Below, in pieces: positions 23,184 to 35,458 of a stretch of 64,000 nucleotides of DNA. Positions within the stretch are counted from its first letter, which is position 1; each line of letters starts with the position of its first letter. The notes beneath the pieces are model-generated. The model saw nothing but the letters and a program-made list of their open reading frames with translations, was not told the origin of the DNA and ran no database searches. The position numbers and the translations under genes are program-made. The DNA is from Macrostomum lignano (lineage: Eukaryota): the NCBI GenBank assembly GCA_002269645.1, contig NIVC01001091.1:1-64000 (forward strand), in the 5' to 3' direction.

Positions 23184-23951
23184 TGTACTAGTGCTATGCC
23201 TTTATCATAGTATACTCGAATGTTCTTTCAATGTAATAACTGTATATTCGAATCTTTCTTAGAAACTGAATCTACGCGAACGCCAAATAATAGTTTGTTT
23301 TAATGCGCGAAATAAATTGGAGAATTATTTTTTTGTTTTAATCGTATGTGGGGAAAATCACTATATATAGGAGCGGTTTTGCGACAAATATACTCTAACT
23401 GTCTTTTACTCGTGAGCAAATAATTGCGAACAGAATAAGCAGTTCAATCTAAACCATTTCAAAGTCTTTGAGCTAAATAGCGACTTATTTATTTGCAAAA
23501 CCTGTGAAACGATTCTAAGAAATTTGCTAAGAGAAGGGAATTGGGACTAATTCTTGGAGATATACCAAGAGAGGCGCCGTGACCCTCTAGTCTCGGTGAA
23601 CGCCCGATTAGGACTATACACTAATACATATACCAGTACTAGACCGCTCAGGCCATAAGCTACTAGAACGCTACCAGAAAGCAAGCCATAAGCTACCAGA
23701 AACGCTACTAAGAACGCTACCAGAAACGCTACTAAGAACGCTACCCAGAAATATTTAAATGAAATTCTAAGAAATAGTTAGGGAGTAAAAGCAAGTATAG
23801 TCAGGATAACTGTAGTTGGCAAATCGGTGGGATTAAAATTGATAAAGTAAGAGGTGAAAGGCCTGTAACAACTTTGGTGGCAGCTCGTAGGATATTTAAT
23901 AAACACTAATAGTTAGAAGTTTAGAAAGACAGAGCCAAAAGGCCTGTCACA
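23184..23951 (+). repeat. 5' LTR
   Basis: TGTACTAG...TGTCACA; same length as 31168-31935 and no difference found by eye. Confidence 0.95.
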
Positions 23952-23953
23952 GC

Positions 23954-23964
23954 TGGTGGCAGCG
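23954..23964 (+). other. Primer-binding site TGGTGGCAGCG (tRNA-Leu-like)
   Basis: 2 nt after the LTR; complementary to the CGCTGCCA-CCA 3' end typical of eukaryotic tRNA-Leu(AAG/TAG). Confidence 0.8.
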
Positions 23965-24052
23965 ATAAGGATTAGAGAAACGGCGCGAACTCTTAAAGCT
24001 AGATTCAGAAGAATTCCGAAGAATAATTTGAAAAGTTTTTCGTAGAGAAAAG

Positions 24053-25057
24053 ATGAATCAGAATCAGGCTAATGACGCCATCGCCATGCTGGCAGAAGAA
24101 TTGCGAAACCGACTAGAGATAGGGCCGATGAGACACGTTAAGATTCAGAAATTCACACCTACGCAAGACATTCGGATCTGGCTAACAGCCTTCGATCAGC
24201 GCTGTGAAGTAGAAGGGATAGATGAGGAACATAGGAAGCAGGAATTGCTAGCTAATCTGGACCTGTCCACTGCATTCGCAGCGGTACAGCGCCTAAATCT
24301 GCCCGAGGATCTTGAATACGAAGAGTTCAAAGAGCGACTGATTGAGCGATTCGGAAGAATCGGTAGTTCCGCAGAATTCAGAGAGGAGTTTCGTGGAAGA
24401 ATGCAAGGCAGAAATGAGCCTGTAGAGACTTTCGCAGACTGTTTGATCGAGCTGGCATCGCGTGCATTTCCGAATATGACGGTTGAGCAAAGGGAAGAAG
24501 AAATTGTTGAGCAATTCATCAAGGGAATCAGAATTCCGTCAGAGACCCGTGAGAAGCTAATCTTTGCGCAGCCAGGCAATTTACAAGAGGCTAGAAGAAT
24601 GCTAAGAAGGATGGAGGCTGCGTGGAACATGTCTCACAAGAATGTCAACATGAGAATGGCCAAAGGCGAAGGCGAGAGTGAGCAGAAGGCAGATCAGGAG
24701 AAGCTTGAGGACATCATCAAGAAGCAGAGAGCAGAGTTAGAGCAACAGAAGAAGGCGATTGAGGAGCTGATGGAAGAGAAGAGAGCTAGCCGTCAGCAGT
24801 ATCATCCGCAGAATCAATATCAAACGTACGCTCAGGTCGCTGGACCGCCGCAGCAGCCGAGATATCGGCCGCAGCAGCAGCAGCAGCAGCAGCCAGTATG
24901 GCGCGGTCAGCCTCAGTTCAACAGGCAGCCACAGCAACAGCAGCAGCCTCGAGCCTGCTACAATTGCGGGAAGCTTGGCCACATGGCGAGGAATTGCCAG
25001 AGCGCTAGGCCAAACGGTCAGCGAGTGGTGAACTACCAGAAGCAGCAGGGAAACTGA
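24053..25057 (+). CDS. gag: Gag (334 aa) with capsid-like region, Gln-rich linker and CCHC knuckle
   Basis: CYNCGKLGHMARNC; YEEFKERLIERFG; QGRNEPVETF..L..LA..AFP; EQFIKGI. Confidence 0.93.
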   Translation: MNQNQANDAIAMLAEELRNRLEIGPMRHVKIQKFTPTQDIRIWLTAFDQRCEVEGIDEEHRKQELLANLDLSTAFAAVQRLNLPEDLEYEEFKERLIERFGRIGSSAEFREEFRGRMQGRNEPVETFADCLIELASRAFPNMTVEQREEEIVEQFIKGIRIPSETREKLIFAQPGNLQEARRMLRRMEAAWNMSHKNVNMRMAKGEGESEQKADQEKLEDIIKKQRAELEQQKKAIEELMEEKRASRQQYHPQNQYQTYAQVAGPPQQPRYRPQQQQQQQPVWRGQPQFNRQPQQQQQPRACYNCGKLGHMARNCQSARPNGQRVVNYQKQQGN

Positions 25058-25091: not shown

Positions 25092-28000
25092 TAGCAACAA
25101 TTATCGCGAATTTCAGGCCTCTGAATTTGTAAATAATGCGTATCGAAGTAATGCCAGACAGTATAGTAACAGCAGAACGCATGCCGAATTCAATAAATTT
25201 CACAGAAAACCAAATAAAAATTTTGCACCTCGTGTACATACGCCGCTTGCACCTAGTCATGCGTCTGCCAGCCACAGTAGGCCGAATAATAAAGTACAAA
25301 GTACAGTAATTCCGAATGAGCATTCGAAGAAAGAATTCGAAGAAGATACGGAGAGAAAAGGACGAGAAGCAGTCGTCAATGGAATGCTAAGAAACCGAAA
25401 GGTCTACTTCCTGCTAGACACAGGAGCTGGACATAATTTCCTAAGCAAGAGTACTTGGAAAAAGATGTTCAGAAGTGATGAAATTGAGTTGACTACTAGA
25501 AGAGTGACTACGTTTGACGGATCAAGTGTGCGAATTGAAGGAGAAGTCAGAACGAAAATACGATTCGGAGAGATAGAGATTGAGACAGAGTTCCTGCTGT
25601 GCAATCACGAGTGTGACGACATACTCGGGATGGAGTTCTTCATGAACTTCTGCGACAGCATCAGCCTTTCCAGAGGAATGCTTGTATTAAAAGAAGGGAC
25701 CTGCATCCCAATTCAGTTTACAAAATTACCCGTACGGGTTTGCCGAATCTACAGCCATAACAGCGTGACTATACCAGCGAATAGCGCTCTTCGAATTCCA
25801 ATTAGAATGACTAAAGGATCAGAAGCTAACTATGGAACGCCAATGGTCATTGACACCATTGGAGGCCAAGTGACTACGAAGAGAAATTCCTTAGAGATGA
25901 TTCCTACTCTAGTGACCATGAACGATGGAACAGGAGTAGTGGAAATAATCAATCGACAGAATGACGATATCAGACTGACAAGATCTACGCTGATTGGAGT
26001 GGCCAAACCCTTGAAGCCAGGAGGCCTGGCCTACTCTATTAACAGCAAAGGTCAAGCCAGTTCAGATGATGCAATTAGGACAGTGAAGAGTGAAGAGAGT
26101 GAGTACAGCTGGATAAACGAGATCGATTTAGGAGAAGAGCTAACATCAGAACAGAAAGGACTAGTGATCGATTTGCTAAAGAAGAACAAGGAAGCATTTT
26201 CGCAGACCAACCAAGACATGGGTCTCACCCATCTTGTGACTCATGAAATATCTCTAAAAGATACCACACCGGTCAGGATTCCAACACGCAGAATTCCACC
26301 ACATCTGCAAAAGCAAGTAGATGAGCAACTTGACGACATGCTTGCTAAGAACCTGATCCGACCATGCTATAGTACTTATTCAACGCCGCTAGTGATAGTT
26401 CCTAAGAAGGATGGATCCATAAGAATCGTCAGTGACTTCAGGGTCCTGAACTCGAGAGTGAACTATTACCCATATCCATTGCCGAACATACAAGAGACTT
26501 TCGCTCAGTTATCTGGAAGCAAGTACTTCAGTAGTCTAGATTTAAACTCTGGATACTGGCAGGTACCTATCAAAGAAGAGCACAAATTTATGACAGCCTT
26601 TTCCACCCTTACCAGAGGCCAGTTCGAATATCAGGTCATGGCACAGGGCTTGTCTAACGCTCCTGGTACATTCCAGAGACTCATGAATTTGGTGCTGATG
26701 GGAATACAGCACAAATTCGCGATGTCGTACATAGATGATATTGTGACATACTCAGAGAAATTCGAAGATCATCTCGGTCATCTGCAAGAAGTATTTCAAA
26801 GACTAATCTCAGCAGGACTAAAATTAAGACCAAAAAAGTGCAACTTGTTTCAGAAAGAGCTAAAGTACTTAGGGCATATCGTAGGAAGAGAAGGGATTAG
26901 AACAGACCCAGCTAAGATCGAAGCGATACAGTCATGGCCTACGCCGAAAGAGGTCAAAGAACTGCGAAGCTTCTTGGGGTTGTGTAACTACTACTGCAGA
27001 TTTGTAAAGAATTACGCAGAGGCAGCGCATCCACTATTTCAATTAACTAAGAAAGGTATTCAAAACTTTAGGGAAAAGTGGACCAAGAAGCATGACGAGG
27101 CTTTCCAGCAGTTGAAGCAGAGAATGACATCGACCGAAGTACTCGCGTACCCAGAATTCTCAGAGAACGAAAATGTTCGAATGGTATTAGACACCGACGC
27201 AAGCGAAGACCGAATTGGTGCTTGCCTGGGTCAAATACAATCGGACGGGGTTGAAAGACCCATTGCTTACTTCAGCAGAGCAATGAAAGAGTCTGAGAAA
27301 AGATATCCGATTACCAGAAAAGAGCTATTAGCGCTAGTAGATGGCATGAAACACTTCCGATTTTACCTAATTGGCAAAAGGTTTCTGGCCCGCACAGACC
27401 ACAAGGCAATTCTATGGCTATTGCGCCAGACCGAAGCCCAAGGAATTCTCGGAAGATGGATTGAAAGACTGAGTGAGTTTCAATACGATATTGAGCACCG
27501 CAGTGGAGCCAAACATTCCAACGCAGATGGATTGTCACGGCGACCCTCGGAACCACCAGTTGAACAGAAAGATGCTAAGATCAAAGAGAATGAGGCCGAA
27601 ATTCCTAAGATGACAATAGAAACCAGCGCTGTGAAACAAGTCGTGACTAGCAGCGTGAAAGATCAGAGTTGCCAGACCGACTTCACAGAAGAGTATGAAT
27701 CAGATTCCGAAGACGAATTCGCAGATGATGAATACGAAGATGCCAGTGATCAGTTCGAAGATGATGATGACATCTATGAAGATGCAAGAGACTATTTCGA
27801 AGAGGAAGAGACAGTGTGCAGAAAGCTTCTGACAGATTACCTCTCGGTTCCATTGAAGAAAGAGCAGCTGACTTCAGCGCAGCATGCTGATCCTTCTATA
27901 AGAACCTTGATGGACTGGAAGCAGAAGAAAGTGCGTGAGCCGAAGTTACCAGAAAATGCATCCGGAGAATTGAAGAAGATGGTTAAGTTCTACGAGCAGA

Positions 28001-29571
28001 TGAAAATCGAAGATGAAATGCTGACAGTCAGTGAAGACGGTAAACGAAAAGTAGTATTGCCAGAGAAGATTGAGAAAGATGTATTCAAAGAGCTGCACGA
28101 CAGTCCGCTAGCAGGCCACCTAGGTCGGGACAAGACGCTACAGCGAGTCCGAGACCGATTCTGGAGGCCGGGGTTAGTGACTGCAGTTGAAAAGTACATC
28201 GCAGAATGCATCCCGTGTCTGGAAAGTAAAAGCGGAAATAAAGTACGAGCACCGGTGCAGACCTTTCCGATATGTGAGCCATTCCATCGGCTGCACATAG
28301 ATTTGATCGGTCCGATATCAAAGGAAAGCAGAAGAGGACACCGATATGTACTTACTGTTGTAGATAGTACAACGAAGTTCCCATTCGCTTTTCCGGTTCG
28401 GAATCAGAAATCCGCTACTGTTATCAAAACGATACAAGAGAGAATTTTCAGCGAGTATGGCCAGTGCCAATGGATACACACTGATAATGGCAAGACTTTT
28501 GTAAGTCACCAATTTCAGGCATTCTGTACCCTATACGGCATTAAGCATACTTGCACTACGCCTTACCATGCTCAGAGTAACGGGCTTGTCGAAAGATTTA
28601 ACAAGCAAATTAAATCGATTGTAACCTGTTTGATTGAAAAGGATCATTCAGATTGGGATCTGCTCATACCCGCCGCTTTGGTAGCTGTGCGAACCAGTGT
28701 TAATCAAACTACTGGGTTCACACCACACTACTTACTATTCGGGAGAGAAGCAGATTTGCCAATAGATAGCATTGTGAAAAGGCCAAGACTATACCGAGAC
28801 TATCCTAGTTATGTGCTGGATCATGCGAAGAGAATCGAGGAGACAAAAGCAATTGTGCGAAGACAACTCGAAAAGGTGCGAGAGAAAAGGCAAGAGGACG
28901 AAGTTGAGAATCGTCAGCCTAAAAATGTGCCAGTTGGCTGTCTCGCTCTCATCAACAACCCTCAACTTCACCAAGAGGAGAGCCACAAGTTTCATCGAAA
29001 GAAGAGAGCAGCCTATCGAGTACTTGCGAAGATATCAGACACAGTGTTCCGTGTGCAAAGAGAAATCAATGGCGAAAGGAGCGGAGAAAAACTATTAGTA
29101 CATAGAAATAATCTGACTCCAGTGCCGAAATCCGAAATTGATTTACCAGAGGAAATTAATAATAATTTAAAACCAGCACCAGTGTCAACTAAGAAGAAGG
29201 AACCGCCGAAGCCGAAGAAAAGAATTTGCCATAGACAAAAAGAAGTTAGAATTCTAGAAGTTCAAATTTTAGAGGAAAGCTCAGACGAAGAAAACAGAAT
29301 TCAATGGAGAGTATTCGCAGATCCGAATTCGCAGAGTGAAAACGAAGGAAATGAAGAATTGAACAGTGAGAATACAGAGAGAGCGACTGACTCAGATGAG
29401 CCATCAGAAGAAGAGGAAGGAGCATTAGAGTTAGAGGAGGAACGTGCTAACACAGTAGGAGGCTATAATTTGAGACCCCGAGACAATAGAGTGACTCAGC
29501 AAGAGAGAGAGAGAGAAGGCGCGACAGGATTTGTGCCCCGAAGGCGCTATGCGAGATATTTAGCACCTTAA
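25048..29571 (+). CDS. pol: Pol (protease, reverse transcriptase, RNase H, integrase); probably made as a Gag-Pol fusion; first in-frame ATG at 25384
   Basis: LLDTGA protease; LDLNSGYWQ and YIDD in RT; LDTDAS..ELLA..TDH in RNase H; H-x6-H..C-x2-C, HIDLIGP, TDNG, SNGLVERFN and GFTPHYLLFG in integrase. Uninterrupted 1395-aa ORF. Confidence 0.96.
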   Translation, partial: GKLSSEGRFARPRPSSNNYREFQASEFVNNAYRSNARQYSNSRTHAEFNKFHRKPNKNFAPRVHTPLAPSHASASHSRPNNKVQSTVIPNEHSKKEFEEDTERKGREAVVNGMLRNRKVYFLLDTGAGHNFLSKSTWKKMFRSDEIELTTRRVTTFDGSSVRIEGEVRTKIRFGEIEIETEFLLCNHECDDILGMEFFMNFCDSISLSRGMLVLKEGTCIPIQFTKLPVRVCRIYSHNSVTIPANSALRIPIRMTKGSEANYGTPMVIDTIGGQVTTKRNSLEMIPTLVTMNDGTGVVEIINRQNDDIRLTRSTLIGVAKPLKPGGLAYSINSKGQASSDDAIRTVKSEESEYSWINEIDLGEELTSEQKGLVIDLLKKNKEAFSQTNQDMGLTHLVTHEISLKDTTPVRIPTRRIPPHLQKQVDEQLDDMLAKNLIRPCYSTYSTPLVIVPKKDGSIRIVSDFRVLNSRVNYYPYPLPNIQETFAQLSGSKYFSSLDLNSGYWQVPIKEEHKFMTAFSTLTRGQFEYQVMAQGLSNAPGTFQRLMNLVLMGIQHKFAMSYIDDIVTYSEKFEDHLGHLQEVFQRLISAGLKLRPKKCNLFQKELKYLGHIVGREGIRTDPAKIEAIQSWPTPKEVKELRSFLGLCNYYCRFVKNYAEAAHPLFQLTKKGIQNFREKWTKKHDEAFQQLKQRMTSTEVLAYPEFSENENVRMVLDTDASEDRIGACLGQIQSDGVERPIAYFSRAMKESEKRYPITRKELLALVDGMKHFRFYLIGKRFLARTDHKAILWLLRQTEAQGILGRWIERLSEFQYDIEHRSGAKHSNADGLSRRPSEPPVEQKDAKIKENEAEIPKMTIETSAVKQVVTSSVKDQSCQTDFTEEYESDSEDEFADDEYEDASDQFEDDDDIYEDARDYFEEEETVCRKLLTDYLSVPLKKEQLTSAQHADPSIRTLMDWKQKKVREPKLPENASGELKKMVKFYEQMKIEDEMLTVSEDGKRKVVLPEKIEKDVFKELHDSPLAGHLGRDKTLQRVRDRFWRPGLVTAVEKYIAECIPCLESKSGNKVRAPVQTFPICEPFHRLHIDLIGPISKESRRGHRYVLTVVDSTTKFPFAFPVRNQKSATVIKTIQERIFSEYGQCQWIHTDNGKTFVSHQFQAFCTLYGIKHTCTTPYHAQSNGLVERFNKQIKSIVTCLIEKDHSDWDLLIPAALVAVRTSVNQTTGFTPHYLLFGREADLPIDSIVKRPRLYRDYPSYVLDHAKRIEETKAIVRRQLEKVREKRQEDEVENRQPKNVPVGCLALINNPQLHQEESHKFHRKKRAAYRVLAKISDTVFRVQREINGERSGEKLLVHRNNLTPVPKSEIDLPEEINNNLKPAPVSTKKKEPPKPKKRICHRQKEVRILEVQILEESSDEENRIQWRVFADPNSQSENEGNEELNSENTERATDSDEPSEEEEGALELEEERANTVGGYNLRPRDNRVTQQEREREGATGFVPRRRYARYLAP

Positions 29572-29820
29572 ACCATGACGTAAGCAATTTCCCATAAGAA
29601 ACAGTGTTAAATAGTTAAATTTCCGTATTGGAATTACTTATCTGCTTATAAAATTTGACATGCTGTACATAGAGCGAATCTGTAAATACCATATTAATCT
29701 ACAAAATGCGATCTTTAATTTGATACTTTACTCAAGAAAATTTATCAAAAAATAAAAAAGTTATAAAAATAAATAGAAAATCCATAAAAAATTAGTTGTC
29801 AAATCTGTCAAATCTGGCAT

Positions 29821-29957
29821 GCCCCGCCCCACGCGCGAGGGGAGTGCTTCGAAGAGGTCCAGTTTTTCGGCCCGCCAGCCTATAAATACGAGCTCCCCGC
29901 AGGCCCCACAGATCCCATAGCTCACTGCTAGCTTCCTTTCTATTCTAAGAGTCATTC
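29821..29957 (+). promoter_or_regulatory. Putative internal promoter / splice acceptor for ORF3
   Basis: GC box CCCCGCCCC (29822-30), TATAAATA (29881-88), pyrimidine tract + AG (29948-49), TCATTC Inr-like (29952-57), ATG at 29970. Confidence 0.55.
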
Positions 29958-29969
29958 GAAGAGAACCAT

Positions 29970-30875
29970 ATGGATAACTCAGTCGACATTCTGCAAGAGT
30001 TAATCGGTGACCTGTCCGAAGAGATTGAGCCTCAGCCGGAGCCTAATGTTGACGAGAACGAGGCGCCGCTACGTTGTCCAACAAGACCAAAGGCGCCTGG
30101 TGTAAGCAACAAAAGACCGAGGGCATCGCCACGAGCATCATCGCCTTGCCGCCAATTAAACGTGGATGGCCCAGAGCAAAAGCGAGCCGCCTTGCTGACA
30201 ACACAGGCAGCGGCGCCCATTCGTTCGTACGTTATCAAGGCCACGCCAGGCTCGTCAACAGCAGGAAGAACGCAGCAGCTAGTGTCGCCGCCATCTGCCC
30301 CGCCATCGAAGAAGCCTCCAGCACCGCGGCGGAAGAAGCCCGAGGCCGCGCCAACAACGGCTCAACAGCCGCCGAGTCTGCCGGCAGCTCCGCAGCCAGT
30401 TTCACTGCCGAACCAGCAGCCAGCTCAACAGTCACCGAGTCTGCAGGCAGTTCCGCAGCTAGCTCCACAGCCAGCTCTGCAGCCGAGTCAACAACCAGCT
30501 TCGCAGCCGCCGACACCGCAGCAAGACTATCATCGAATTGTCCGAAAGCTTGTAGAGACTCGTGGATCTGAGGTCGAGAAATTGCACTTCCATATTGAGC
30601 AGTACTCGCTGAAGGTCGCGTACCATCGATCTGACATGCGGCAGCGATATCCTCAAGGGTCTCAGATCTGGCAGCACCTGAAGTTCCTTAGGGAACAGTT
30701 CAGCCACCAAGAAGCGGTTGCGATTCTGCAAGATGTCGCCCATCGTATCCAAAGGGCCAGGCAAGTCAACCCGCCACCTTCGCTAGCTGTACTAGACGAG
30801 GAGTACAACTGGTTCTTCTCTCAAATCGGCTGGCCTTATTACCGTGATCTACCTGAACCATGCAAATTTATTTGA
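29970..30875 (+). CDS. Retrotransposon accessory ORF3 (301 aa), not Env; function unknown
   Basis: Intact sense ORF between pol and the 3' LTR. Acidic N-terminal helix, basic NLS-like clusters, Pro/Gln/Ala-rich middle and a roughly 115-aa ordered-looking C-terminus; no signal peptide or TM segment. Confidence 0.8.
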   Translation: MDNSVDILQELIGDLSEEIEPQPEPNVDENEAPLRCPTRPKAPGVSNKRPRASPRASSPCRQLNVDGPEQKRAALLTTQAAAPIRSYVIKATPGSSTAGRTQQLVSPPSAPPSKKPPAPRRKKPEAAPTTAQQPPSLPAAPQPVSLPNQQPAQQSPSLQAVPQLAPQPALQPSQQPASQPPTPQQDYHRIVRKLVETRGSEVEKLHFHIEQYSLKVAYHRSDMRQRYPQGSQIWQHLKFLREQFSHQEAVAILQDVAHRIQRARQVNPPPSLAVLDEEYNWFFSQIGWPYYRDLPEPCKFI

Positions 30876-31154
30876 GCTGAACTATTGAGGTGAACTAACT
30901 TTTGCGTTGCCTTTAATAACAATTTTGCCTTTTATAATACTTTTATAATAGTTCGTTTTGCTTCCATAATAGTTCTCACTTTAATGGTTTACCTACATAA
31001 TAGTTCTATCACAACCATTTTATGCACCAATTGTTTTAGCACTGAATTGTGTTTTCTGCACCTTGCTTTGCACCTTTTCACCTGCATTTTCCTACGATAT
31101 CAATTTTTTCACTGTATACATATAATATAGTATTTCGTTCAAAATTTGATATAT

Positions 31155-31166
31155 AGAGGAGGAAAG
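31155..31166 (+). other. Polypurine tract AGAGGAGGAAAG
   Basis: 1 nt before the 3' LTR. Confidence 0.9.
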
Positions 31167-31167
31167 T

Positions 31168-31935
31168 TGTACTAGTGCTATGCCTTTATCATAGTATACT
31201 CGAATGTTCTTTCAATGTAATAACTGTATATTCGAATCTTTCTTAGAAACTGAATCTACGCGAACGCCAAATAATAGTTTGTTTTAATGCGCGAAATAAA
31301 TTGGAGAATTATTTTTTTGTTTTAATCGTATGTGGGGAAAATCACTATATATAGGAGCGGTTTTGCGACAAATATACTCTAACTGTCTTTTACTCGTGAG
31401 CAAATAATTGCGAACAGAATAAGCAGTTCAATCTAAACCATTTCAAAGTCTTTGAGCTAAATAGCGACTTATTTATTTGCAAAACCTGTGAAACGATTCT
31501 AAGAAATTTGCTAAGAGAAGGGAATTGGGACTAATTCTTGGAGATATACCAAGAGAGGCGCCGTGACCCTCTAGTCTCGGTGAACGCCCGATTAGGACTA
31601 TACACTAATACATATACCAGTACTAGACCGCTCAGGCCATAAGCTACTAGAACGCTACCAGAAAGCAAGCCATAAGCTACCAGAAACGCTACTAAGAACG
31701 CTACCAGAAACGCTACTAAGAACGCTACCCAGAAATATTTAAATGAAATTCTAAGAAATAGTTAGGGAGTAAAAGCAAGTATAGTCAGGATAACTGTAGT
31801 TGGCAAATCGGTGGGATTAAAATTGATAAAGTAAGAGGTGAAAGGCCTGTAACAACTTTGGTGGCAGCTCGTAGGATATTTAATAAACACTAATAGTTAG
31901 AAGTTTAGAAAGACAGAGCCAAAAGGCCTGTCACA
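31168..31935 (+). repeat. 3' LTR
   Basis: Copy of 23184-23951 at a constant offset of 7984. Confidence 0.95.
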
Positions 31936-32620
31936 ATTTAATTGCTTTATAAAAGTTTTTCTTTCACATTACTAAGTATATCAAGTATATTAAAAAAATC
32001 TAATAGATTTATAGCAAACAATAAATTAAATTGTTTCAAAAGCAGATGACCAAGTTTAATACTATGATTTTATTTTTCTGATATCCCAGTTGTAACAGAT
32101 TTGTCTCCCAATTTTTCAACATTTAAAATTTGAGAATTAGTTCTATTTTAGCTTTATCCTTAATGCATGCAAGAGAAGAGATCTTTATTGTTCTTTTCTT
32201 AAATTTCAATGCAAAAGCTAAAAGTAATGAGTAGTAATAGTGAGTTGAAAGTGTCCACTTCTTGTGGATATACCCAAGAAATATTTTCTTGTTTAAAGTA
32301 ATTTAAAATACAAAACTACAGTAGAAGCAAAAACTTGAAACTAACAAACTGGTATTTCTATAGTTGTAGCCACTGGAGCAGAATCTGCTTTAGATTTTAG
32401 CATAGTTACCATAGCAGTCACCTATTGCCAATAGTTAAAATTAGAACACAAATATTAGTTAGACTTATTGTGACTATGAGAATATTTAACTCTACACCAG
32501 AAATAAAAACTAGACATTTACAAGAATCATATAAATATTGGCTTTTATTGCAGCTTGTATATTATCTGTATAAGCAATTAGTTCGATTACTAGCTTAATA
32601 AATAAAACAACCAACTAGCC

Positions 32621-35458
32621 ATGAGCGGCAGTGCAGCAGTGGCAGCCTCAGCCGAGCCAGAGAAGCCAGCAGAGCCCAAGGAGGCCGAAGCCGATTCTGG
32701 AGCTGTTCGTAAGCCGAACGATTCTCGATTTCATCAGCAGAGGCTGCCCGCATGGCAACCGTTGCTAACGGCCAAGCCCGCATTCTGTCTGTTCTTCATC
32801 ATCGGTATTGTGTTCGTACCATTGGGCGCGTTTTTGTTGACAACTTCTCAATCGGTTGAAGAGATCAAAACTGACTATACAAATTGCAAGAATGGATCCA
32901 GCTTCTGTCTGGCACTGGTAAGATATTAGCATTTGTCTGTTAGGTTCCCTGAGGCTGTAAGGCAGAGTTTTCTTTGTTGGAGGCGCCATTTCACTTGATT
33001 AGGCGCCATTTCAATTGACTAGGTGCCATTTCACTTGATTAGGCGCCATTTCACTTTGACTAGGCGCTATTTCAATTGATTAGGCGCCATTTTATTTCAC
33101 TAGGCGCCATTTTATTTGACTAGGCGCCATTTCACTTGACTAGGCGCCATTTCATTTCACCAGGCGCCATTTCATTTGACTAGGCGCCATTTCACTTGAC
33201 TAATCGCTCACGAAACAAAATATCACGATGATCTTCATTGTTTTATGCTTTCAAAGCTTGTGTCATTGAATGGTCTCTGCTGGTACAACCTAGCTGGTGT
33301 CCTTAGTTGACCTCTGTTGTTGCAACATGCTTATGTCCTGAAATGACCTTTTCCGGTATTAAAGCTGCTAATTGCCCACTGATTTCATTCCAGGTGAGCA
33401 CGCCAGAATACTACGCCAACTTCCAGAGCTGCCAGTGCATGGTGGACATCAAACTGCCCAACAACCTGACTGGCCAGGTGTACGCCTATTACGCCCTGAC
33501 TAATTTCTATCAGAATCATCGGCGCTACGTTAAAAGCCGGGACGACGGCCAACTGCAGGGCACAAAGATGGACAACCTGCTGGATGACTGCAATCCCTAT
33601 AGGCAGAGCCCGTCTGGCCAGTGGTACGCTCCCTGCGGCGCCATCGCTAATAGCCTATTCAACGACACGTTCCAGCTGTTCTACAACCGGCCAGACGGCT
33701 CCGGCCGGGTAGCCGTGCCCTGGACCTCTACCGGCATAGCCTGGGACAGCGATCGGGCCCGCAAATTTGCTCGCATCAGTTCGTGGAATAATACCGTTAA
33801 GCCTGTGAATTGGCCCAAGTCGGCTAAGGAGAGGAATGCCGACGCTTATCAGGTTAGGGTTGGCAACTTGACGAGGAGATCAGGTCCTTAAATGACCTTT
33901 CATATCAGTGACGTTTGTTTTGAAGTTTGTATGATTTTCGAGCCGGTGTCCTTGAATGACCTTTACAGGTGCAACTTGCACTGTGTCCTTGAATGACCTT
34001 TACAGGTGCAACTTGCACTATGTCCTTGAATGACCTTTACAGGTGCAACTTGCACTGTGTCCTTGAATGACCTTTACAGGTGCAACTTGCACTGTGTCCT
34101 TGAATGACCTTTACAGGTGCAACTTGCACTGTGTCCTTGAATGACCTTTACAGGTGCAACTTGCACTGTGTCCTTGAATGACCTTTACAGGTGCAACTTG
34201 CACTGTGTCCTTGAATGACCTTTACAGGTGCAACTTGCACTGTGTCCTTGAATGACCTTTACAGGTGCAACTTGCACTGTGTCCTTGAATGACCTTTACA
34301 GGTGCAACTTGCACTGTGTCCTTGAATGACCTTTACAGGTGCAACTTGCACTGTGTCCTTGAATGACCTTTACAGGTGCAACTTGCACTGTGTCCTTGAA
34401 TGACCTTTACAGGTGCAACTTGCACTGTGTCCTTGAATGACCTTTACAGGTGCAGCTTTCACTGTGTCCTTGAATGACCTTTACAGGTGCAACTTGCACT
34501 GTGTCCTTGAATGACCTTTACAGGTGCAACTTGCACTGTGTCCTTGAATAGCCTTCACTTTACCAGGCACTACTTCAACTTATGCGGTGTCTTTGAAAAA
34601 TGTTTTTAAAGTTCAATTTAGGCTTCTGTCATTAAAAGACCAATTTCTGGATCTACTTAAAATGGTTACAGGTATTCCCGCCTTCCTGATGGACCTACAT
34701 ACACGGTTGTAGATTTTACTGGTGTCCCTAATAATAATAATTGATTACACCTGCCCTATTGGGCCAGATGTGCAACCGACAGCTCAGCCGCAGCTATTGC
34801 GCGGCGAATCTGAAGGCTGCGTACGGCTGTTCAGTCCAAGGACTGGGGGCTCGCCGCACACACCCTCAATTACCCCAGCTAATGCTGGCACCCATTTTAC
34901 AACTGGGTGAACTGGAGCAATGCAGAGTTAAGTGTCTTGCTCAAGGACACAAATTGTTCCAGTGGGATCGGGAATCGAACCCCCGACGCTCTAACCACTA
35001 GGCTACATCCCATGGTGTCCCTAGATGACCTAAATTACCTGCTTAGTGTCTTTAAATGGTCTCTTTTCCACTGCAACATAGGCAAATCGATTGTCCTCAA
35101 ATAAGCTTATGTTTCGGCTTCCTTAACCCGTGCCCTTTAGGGTGACGAAGAGCTAATAGTCTGGATGCGAACCGCCGCCTTGCCATCGTTTCGCAAGCTG
35201 CACCGCATCATACAGCACGATTCGGCTGCAACGAATCTGTTCAAAGACGGCCTGCCTGCCGGCAACTATTCGCTAGTGGTTAACTACGCCTACCCTGTCA
35301 GCTCGTTTGCCGGCACCAAGTCTTTCATATTGACAACTTCAACTTGGCTGGGCGGCCGGAATCCCGCTCTCGGCATTATCTACCTGGTTGTTGGCTCTCT
35401 GCACGTTATTCTTGGCATCATCTTTGTGGGAGTTTTTCTCTACTCGAGAAAGAAGTGA
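32621..35458 (+). CDS. TMEM30A: CDC50/TMEM30 P4-ATPase flippase beta subunit (about 357 aa); exons 32621-32917, 33394-33852, 35141-35458
   Basis: FHQQRLPAWQP, YYALTNFYQNHRRYVKSRDD.QL, PCGAIANSLFNDTF, GIAWDSD, VWMRTAALPSFRKL, WLGGRNPALGI; splice phases are consistent. Confidence 0.93.
32983..33205. repeat. 20-21-bp minisatellite (TAGGCGCCATTTCACTTGAY)
   Basis: Direct reading; TMEM30 intron 1. Confidence 0.9.
33945..34550. repeat. 37-bp minisatellite (GTGTCCTTGAATGACCTTTACAGGTGCAACTTGCACT) x about 16
   Basis: Direct reading; TMEM30 intron 2. Confidence 0.95.
34729..35011 (-). mobile_element. tRNA-derived SINE, copy 3 (internal deletion in the tRNA head, (TTA)n tail)
   Basis: High similarity to 7759-8059. 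Confidence 0.85.

Follow-up and report, generated by a model that had tools for sequence, protein, structure and literature searches.

Among the accessory proteins of LTR retrotransposons in animals, few that are not Env have, to our knowledge, been characterized. One precedent is CERV from the Caenorhabditis elegans element Cer1, a novel protein that is made from a spliced RNA and described as exporting genomic RNA (PMC10309623). The Oikopleura Tor3b/4b elements express a third gene, env, from an internal promoter in or after pol, and its product is reported to be a membrane glycoprotein (PMC4402516). LTR elements of bdelloid rotifers carry modular, exchangeable ORF3s that have been classified as env-like or as enzymes (GDSL esterase, DEDDy exonuclease; PMC5408684). 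In plants, gene23 of maize Grande and other additional ORFs of Ty3/Gypsy elements lie between pol and the 3' LTR under promoters of their own; gene23 is antisense, and its product is described as nuclear and of unknown function (PMC7264820). The VANC protein of Arabidopsis VANDAL, a DNA transposon, is a fast-diverging anti-silencing factor whose specificity is reported to follow target motifs, and VANDAL elements contain variable short tandem repeats in their non-coding DNA (PMC5735166). Foamy viruses encode Tas in a 3' gene under an internal promoter. Tas combines an acidic region with basic clusters.

We analyzed a 64,000-nucleotide stretch of the Macrostomum lignano genome (contig NIVC01001091.1, positions 1 to 64,000; hereafter the window) that contains a retrotransposon with a third open reading frame, ORF3. 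Like gene23, ORF3 belongs to a Ty3/Gypsy element and lies between pol and the 3' LTR, apparently with its own promoter. It differs from gene23 in being a sense gene of an animal element, in belonging to a separate protein family, and in having a promoter box in common with histone H1 genes and alleles that behave as cassettes. The internal promoter recalls the Tor elements, but ORF3 has no membrane segment. As a novel non-Env protein of an animal LTR element it resembles CERV, although no similarity between the two was detected. The rotifer ORF3s are comparably modular, but the ORF3 domain has no match to their env-like or enzymatic types. VANC is likewise element-encoded and fast-diverging, and window-type elements also carry variable short tandem repeats; in contrast to VANC, different ORF3 alleles can accompany the same LTR. 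Foamy viruses offer a second likeness beyond Tas, a Gag chromatin-binding motif found at the pol end of the element, and ORF3 has acidic and basic regions as Tas does. Unlike foamy viruses, the element has no env; ORF3 gave no sequence or fold match in the libraries searched, and its promoter is apparently driven by a host H1 box.

The initial annotation of this sequence proposed an undescribed system with a complex-retrovirus-like layout. An accessory gene with its own promoter has precedents in Grande gene23 and Tor env; the protein family and the H1-box arrangement do appear to be new. The main text of a study of M. lignano LTR elements (PMC12801592) does not contain "ORF", "accessory", "internal promoter" or "non-autonomous", though the classification cited there might mention extra ORFs. 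The literature we searched, in which subscription journals are thinly covered, yielded no paper in which a retrotransposon and H1 genes have a promoter box in common. ORF3 thus apparently represents an uncharacterized protein family with an unreported promoter arrangement.

Structure and transcription of the element

The element in the window is a complete, very young Ty3/Gypsy LTR retrotransposon on the plus strand. Two LTRs of 768 bp and identical sequence (23184..23951 and 31168..31935) are enclosed by a 4-bp target-site duplication, ATTT. The primer-binding site (23954..23972) is presumably of the tRNA-Leu type, and a polypurine tract occupies 31155..31166. gag (24053..25057; 334 aa, with a zinc knuckle) is followed by a pol ORF (25384..29571, counted from the first ATG) with the Ty3/Gypsy order of protease, RT, RNase H and integrase, an order unlike the Gmr1 arrangement. 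Our RT tree was built without named reference clades (Mag, CsRN1 and so on). ORF3 (29970..30875, plus strand) lies inside the element, after the pol stop at 29571 and before the polypurine tract and the 3' LTR at 31168.

At its C-terminus, the integrase end, pol contains GGYNLRPR (29458..29481, plus strand). These residues are the same as the first 8 of the foamy virus Gag chromatin-binding (nucleosome-binding) peptide, as its sequence is given in PMC12125541, which bears out the nucleosome-tether motif noticed initially. Related Y-x-[LT]-R motifs end the pol of sister elements.

A second, degenerate primer-binding site lies within the LTR, 79 nt upstream of the first. The degenerate units that make up the U5 region (window 23860-23972, and the LTRs of L066, L067 and L076) vary in number and reach four or five; each resembles an LTR end plus a primer-binding site, as if the LTR had grown by capturing earlier priming sites. 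The word TTGTTTTAA occurs twice in U3 of the 5' LTR (23295 and 23333). Within the initial 200 nt of the LTR, TTGTTT(T)AA occurs 21 times across 13 of 13 types (shuffle mean 0.5); it may be a target for ORF3 or for a host factor. Some copies of the sister subclade (L104, L105) have similar words ahead of the ORF3 TATA. E2F-like words are present in 7 of the 13 LTR types.

We searched contigs from four sequencing runs belonging to four studies, from which transcript starts and levels are not readable. The intron of an adjoining host gene was spliced in all four runs, and we therefore took them to represent RNA. Contigs cover ORF3 of both alleles as well as read-through from upstream, and one spans 29256-31363, as expected of genomic RNA.

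Features of the ORF3 protein

ORF3 is an intact reading frame of 301 aa, and the motifs named in the initial annotation are all present. The protein comprises an acidic amphipathic N-terminal helix, short conserved motifs, a KRPR cluster, a Pro/Gln linker and a folded C-terminal domain (residues 183-301; 30516..30872, plus strand). This domain is confidently predicted to form five helices (pLDDT 87, pTM 0.82); it is arginine-rich and mostly basic across the family. The disordered part combines the acidic hydrophobic helix with three short motifs, the latter found in 14-17 of 22 ORF3 types. A strict acidic-helix pattern matched 9 of the 22 types, and the remaining types were judged by eye. KRPR-like words are absent from 7 of 27 ORF3-family proteins.

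The initial annotation had found no Env hallmarks in ORF3, and hydropathy agrees. The maximum 19-residue Kyte-Doolittle mean is 0.77 in the window protein and at most 1.11 among 27 family proteins, none of which shows a signal peptide or transmembrane segment such as an Env or sORF2 fusogen would have.

The C-terminal domain had not been recognized from the sequence, and our searches placed it in no known fold, DNA-binding or otherwise. Pfam has no family for the whole protein or the domain, and PDB sequences gave no match. Foldseek returned nothing at E<=0.001 for either predicted model against the PDB, or for the window-type model against viral structures. Structural matches in VIA were generic helical proteins (best Z 8.2, rmsd 2.3, 81 aligned residues); cullin repeats (Z about 7) were among these helical bundles and were not taken to indicate function. 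Leads from the ESM Atlas were all below 0.9, and word-indexed searches found no homolog. Nor did Pfam, PDB sequences or the fold libraries return a match to foamy virus Tas, although absence from such lists does not exclude homology.

Conservation and distribution of ORF3

Genome-wide, the ORF3 domain gave 150 scored matches among 214 candidates, with identities from 100 to 21%. Of 40 ORF3 loci read at 10 kb, 16 proved to be gag-pol-ORF3 elements and 18 were LTR elements that lack pol and measure about 5 kb; fragments or stand-alone copies made up the other 6. To avoid circularity, 20 relatives of the element were picked by integrase alone. All ten sisters (78-84% integrase identity) have the ORF3 domain after pol, interrupted in three, and none of the ten relatives at 56-63% identity matches the ORF3 profile. 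Of 12 pairs compared over the whole ORF, 9 allowed dS to be computed and gave dN/dS of 0.08-0.24; the other three are saturated. Among 30 close ORF3 copies, 16 have no frameshift. ORF3 is a real, old accessory gene under purifying selection. It is neither missing from the sister elements nor evolving neutrally.

Searching 1.84 billion representative proteins with the ORF3-domain profile returned eight: five named M. lignano proteins, one Logan cluster and two bacterial repeat proteins, which we treated as noise. No scored match in the M. lignano genome exceeds 45% identity to the Logan protein P0009, so the ORF3 family probably reaches another species. A metagenome scan with this distant relative found nothing, and the identifiers of ORF3-relative genes did not appear in the paper supplements we searched.

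Outgroup elements also have a helical domain downstream of pol. Five of them (L111-L115) contain an ORF of 240-278 aa that begins 2-5 nt after the pol stop. In hhalign its domain aligned to ORF3 across 84 columns at E 0.0014, and a reversed control across 13 columns at E 0.057; a second comparison gave E 0.0038 with a probability of 9%. The two domains have the same helix order, an EAP[LE]R motif in common and 21 of their top 50 structural neighbors in common. Homology between this group and ORF3 is probable, not proven. In two more distant copies (L118, L119), a helical domain of similar layout lies in frame with pol in very long polyproteins, and its homology to ORF3 is weak or undetected (hhalign E 0.013 and 0.34).

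A probable internal promoter of ORF3 and the histone H1 box

The initial annotation had read the spacer before ORF3 as an internal promoter, citing paired AATAAA signals, a GC box, a TATA box and a splice-acceptor-like site. These elements fared differently. Both AATAAA words (29751, 29768) are present but at chance level (probability of two or more 0.24 in 1000 shuffles of the A-rich spacer), and RNA contigs run across both, so we rejected them as a pol terminator. The GC box and the splice-acceptor-like site also exist, but by eye they are not kept in other ORF3 types. Among the RNA contigs, which give contig-level data only, no splice joint into 29950 was found. The word CCCCGCCCC (29822-29830) is present as first described.

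The TATA box of the inferred internal promoter, TATAAATA, is at 29881..29888 on the plus strand. As a word it is at chance level (P = 0.43, shuffles), and its significance comes from its conserved position. In 12 of the 22 ORF3 types a TATAWAW word is found 72-111 nt upstream of the ATG. Six further types show a degenerate AT-rich stretch equally far from an upstream box, and four have neither.

That box, the most conserved element of the spacer, was overlooked in the initial annotation. It occupies 29846..29866 (plus strand), 21 nt that recur without a mismatch in the promoter of a stem-loop-type histone H1 gene of the host. In all 14 ORF3 types of the window's subclade the box motif lies 17-27 nt before the TATA position. 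Each element of this subclade has a single box, placed just before that position, both among pol-bearing copies (11 of 11) and among pol-less ones (18 of 18). A genome search with the motif led to the host gene, which Pfam identified as linker histone H1.

We compared the box across histone loci. It is present in all ten parsed H1 loci (4 types; 4 further hits were unparsed), where it holds the same position before the TATA region, and none of the core-histone upstream regions compared contains it (20 distinct H3, 13 H2A/H2B and 16 H4). With 0/16 H4 upstream regions, we discarded the idea of a general histone or H4 element. The window box has 21 exact bases in common with the stem-loop-type H1 gene, and another ORF3 type has 30 in common with a different H1 gene; 92 control stretches matched H1 promoters over at most 11. 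Genome-wide, the 21-mer has 41 exact matches, consisting of 37 ORF3 promoters and 4 H1 promoters, and its reversed control has none. Apart from the H1 gene and one box-plus-stem-loop site, eight single genomic 14-mer matches look incidental. The box could have arisen in ORF3 promoters by convergence rather than by copying from H1. A GGTCC core may bind HINFP, and homologs of HINFP or of CRAMP1/GON4L are candidates for the host factor at the box. H1 genes of flies and humans are reported to have regulators of their own (PMC12979687), and vertebrate H1.0 promoters are described as containing an H4-box element (PMC6027317).

The sister subclade has ORF3 without the H1 box (0/16 loci). The box was thus gained after ORF3 and does not define ORF3 function. 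An internal promoter for ORF3 is well supported by the positioned TATA, the H1-type box and an LTR-less stand-alone copy that has the promoter. The AATAAA pair, the GC box and the acceptor carry no such weight. Through the box a transposon may set the timing of its regulator, and the box hints at an H1-specific regulator in flatworms as well.

ORF3 alleles and cassette exchange

Five copies with an identical 400-aa RT/RNase H stretch have ORF3 domains only 52-80% identical to that of the window. Their pol dS is 0.06-0.09 and their ORF3 dS is 2 or more, at which synonymous sites are saturated. We compared the window with the commonest second allele in 50-nt bins. Identity is 96-100% at 29600-29949, falls to 40-84% at 29950-30899, and then returns to 98-100%. 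The exchanged segment is almost exactly the ORF3 coding sequence, and divergence does not extend past the start and stop codons. Over most of gag, pol and the LTRs, one of the copies compared has 96-100% identity to the window. ORF3 behaves like a cassette that can be swapped among nearly identical gag-pol backbones.

We infer that old alleles have been retained by selection on the ORF3 protein while recombination homogenized their flanks; localized hypermutation is an alternative. Allele boundaries this sharp, at the start and stop codons, allow balancing selection on a gene of a transposon to be tested in a natural setting. One ORF3 frameshift is common to 5 of 30 copies at different sites, four of which have readable, different flanks. 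This suggests that ORF3 can act in trans, though shared frameshifts could be assembly errors. LTRs that are 96-99% alike can be paired with ORF3 domains only 80% alike, and linkage accounts for the correlation seen overall between LTR and ORF3 (Spearman 0.78). The type of ORF3 does not appear to be tied to that of the LTR, which argues against a strict lock and key of the VANC kind.

Pol-less satellites and a stand-alone gene

The pol-less copies encode a Gag-derived protein of about 192 aa that forms one clade (15/15 tested, support 100/100), followed by a 3' remnant of pol and by ORF3 alleles in common with full elements. These satellites are one old clade that swaps LTR and ORF3 with full elements. 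An example of the mini-Gag (L092:4215-4793, minus strand; 192 aa) has a partial capsid and an altered zinc-knuckle-like motif. Words resembling the histone stem-loop occur on the antisense strand only, with 1-3 per copy in 18/18 pol-less copies and none in 37 pol-bearing loci. They sit between mini-gag and the pol remnant (e.g. L092:3970-4015) and may end or process antisense transcripts of the satellites. Rfam detected no histone stem-loop in the elements at its curated threshold; one candidate, at E 0.004, fell below the cut-off.

A stand-alone gene encodes the ORF3 domain in 119 aa (L123:4770-5303; also L121 and L122). Its three homologous loci are annotated as hypothetical proteins and keep the box and the TATA; between the copies there are 4 synonymous and 2 conservative differences. 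Five loci were examined, and in none did anything nearby match gag, pol or an LTR. The gene branches inside one ORF3 subclade and has the promoter of that subclade, and is therefore likely derived from the element. It is a candidate domesticated decoy and a candidate host restriction factor.

Proposed function of ORF3

The initial annotation had proposed a nuclear regulator. ORF3 is a conserved, selected, non-Env accessory gene; the regulatory role is our best reading of it. We propose, at roughly even confidence, that ORF3 is a trans-acting nuclear activator or anti-silencer that is co-expressed with H1 and subject to conflict with the host. A host activator of H1 genes would bind the box and drive ORF3 from its internal promoter along with H1, so that the protein would be made in H1-producing, probably dividing, cells. 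Its acidic helix and short motifs may bring in transcription or chromatin factors of the host, and docking on element chromatin or on a partner may fall to the helical domain. ORF3 would then serve as an activator or anti-silencing adaptor for the element's copies. Conflict with host factors could keep several old alleles alive as recombination homogenizes their flanks. H1 is reported to silence transposons in Drosophila (PMC3384340), which makes co-expression of ORF3 with H1 a plausible counter-move.

Several other roles were weighed against a nuclear regulator. ORF3 could be a Rev- or CERV-like factor whose target is unspliced genomic RNA, which it would help to export or package instead of acting on transcription. 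Cer1 offers a precedent (PMC10309623), the ORF3 domain is arginine-rich, the leucine-rich N-terminal helix could serve as an export signal, and conserved motifs in LTR R/U5 could be RNA sites. However, CERV arises by splicing and ORF3 has a conserved, separate promoter; no protein outside the ORF3 family with a sequence relation was found, and the N-terminal helix is strongly acidic. Strongly acidic helices are typical of activation domains. We regard an RNA-export role as doubtful. The outgroup elements raise another explanation, namely that ORF3 is a detached C-terminal extension of integrase that is co-packaged and aids nuclear entry or target choice of the integration complex. The similar-layout domain in frame with pol in L118 and L119, and the probably homologous ORF 2-5 nt after the pol stop in L111-L115 (hhalign E 0.0014-0.004), would fit such an origin. 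Homology to the pol-fused groups is nevertheless weak or undetected (E 0.013, 0.34), and a fixed partner of integrase sits uneasily with a separate H1-type promoter and with alleles that are swapped while the integrase core stays unchanged, so we consider this role improbable.

The many old alleles, the satellites with their own ORF3 and diverged mini-Gag, and the domain-only copy located in the host could instead reflect conflict among elements, with ORF3 acting as an interference factor that excludes competitors or defends against satellites. Satellites and full elements have the same alleles almost letter for letter, however, which leaves no basis for discrimination, and we judge interference similarly improbable. 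We hold it very improbable that ORF3 represents an Env, a host exon of recent capture or a neutral frame. Its env position and the related stand-alone gene in the host genome would allow it, but ORF3 is conserved across a deep clade under strong purifying selection and lacks a signal or membrane segment, and the stand-alone gene, placed inside one subclade with its promoter, is likely element-derived. Hydropathy and dN/dS refute the Env and neutral versions.

The nuclear-regulator reading can be extended to a joint scenario that we hold unlikely as a whole. The lineage would have taken over the promoter box of the silencer H1, so that a counter-silencing protein is made whenever H1 is made; swappable old alleles would persist by frequency-dependent selection. 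The domain-only host copy under the same promoter would be a dominant-negative decoy, and the satellites would terminate antisense transcripts with histone-type stem-loops. ORF3 brings a whole family of animal non-Env accessory proteins whose predicted domain has no match in the libraries searched. Transgenesis and LTR reporters are described as established in M. lignano (PMC12801592).

Host sequences around the box and the element

The large arrays of the H1 box are host minisatellites. They are built of 34-bp and 24-bp units (L182:2450-4570, L183, L185, L184) and account for many of the 1451 genomic matches; they could bind the H1 regulator. At L191:1880-2030, an H1-box-like word comes about 100 nt after a histone stem-loop, and no histone start was seen in the stretch read. 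Histone-fold genes near three ORF3 matches lie beyond gag/pol remnants and were read as neighboring host genes. Downstream of the element, a host gene at window 32553-33891, with a GT-AG intron between 32916 and 33393, resembles CDC50. RNA contigs have an identical 23-nt loose 5' end at 32553 in 4/4 runs, which is consistent with spliced-leader trans-splicing.
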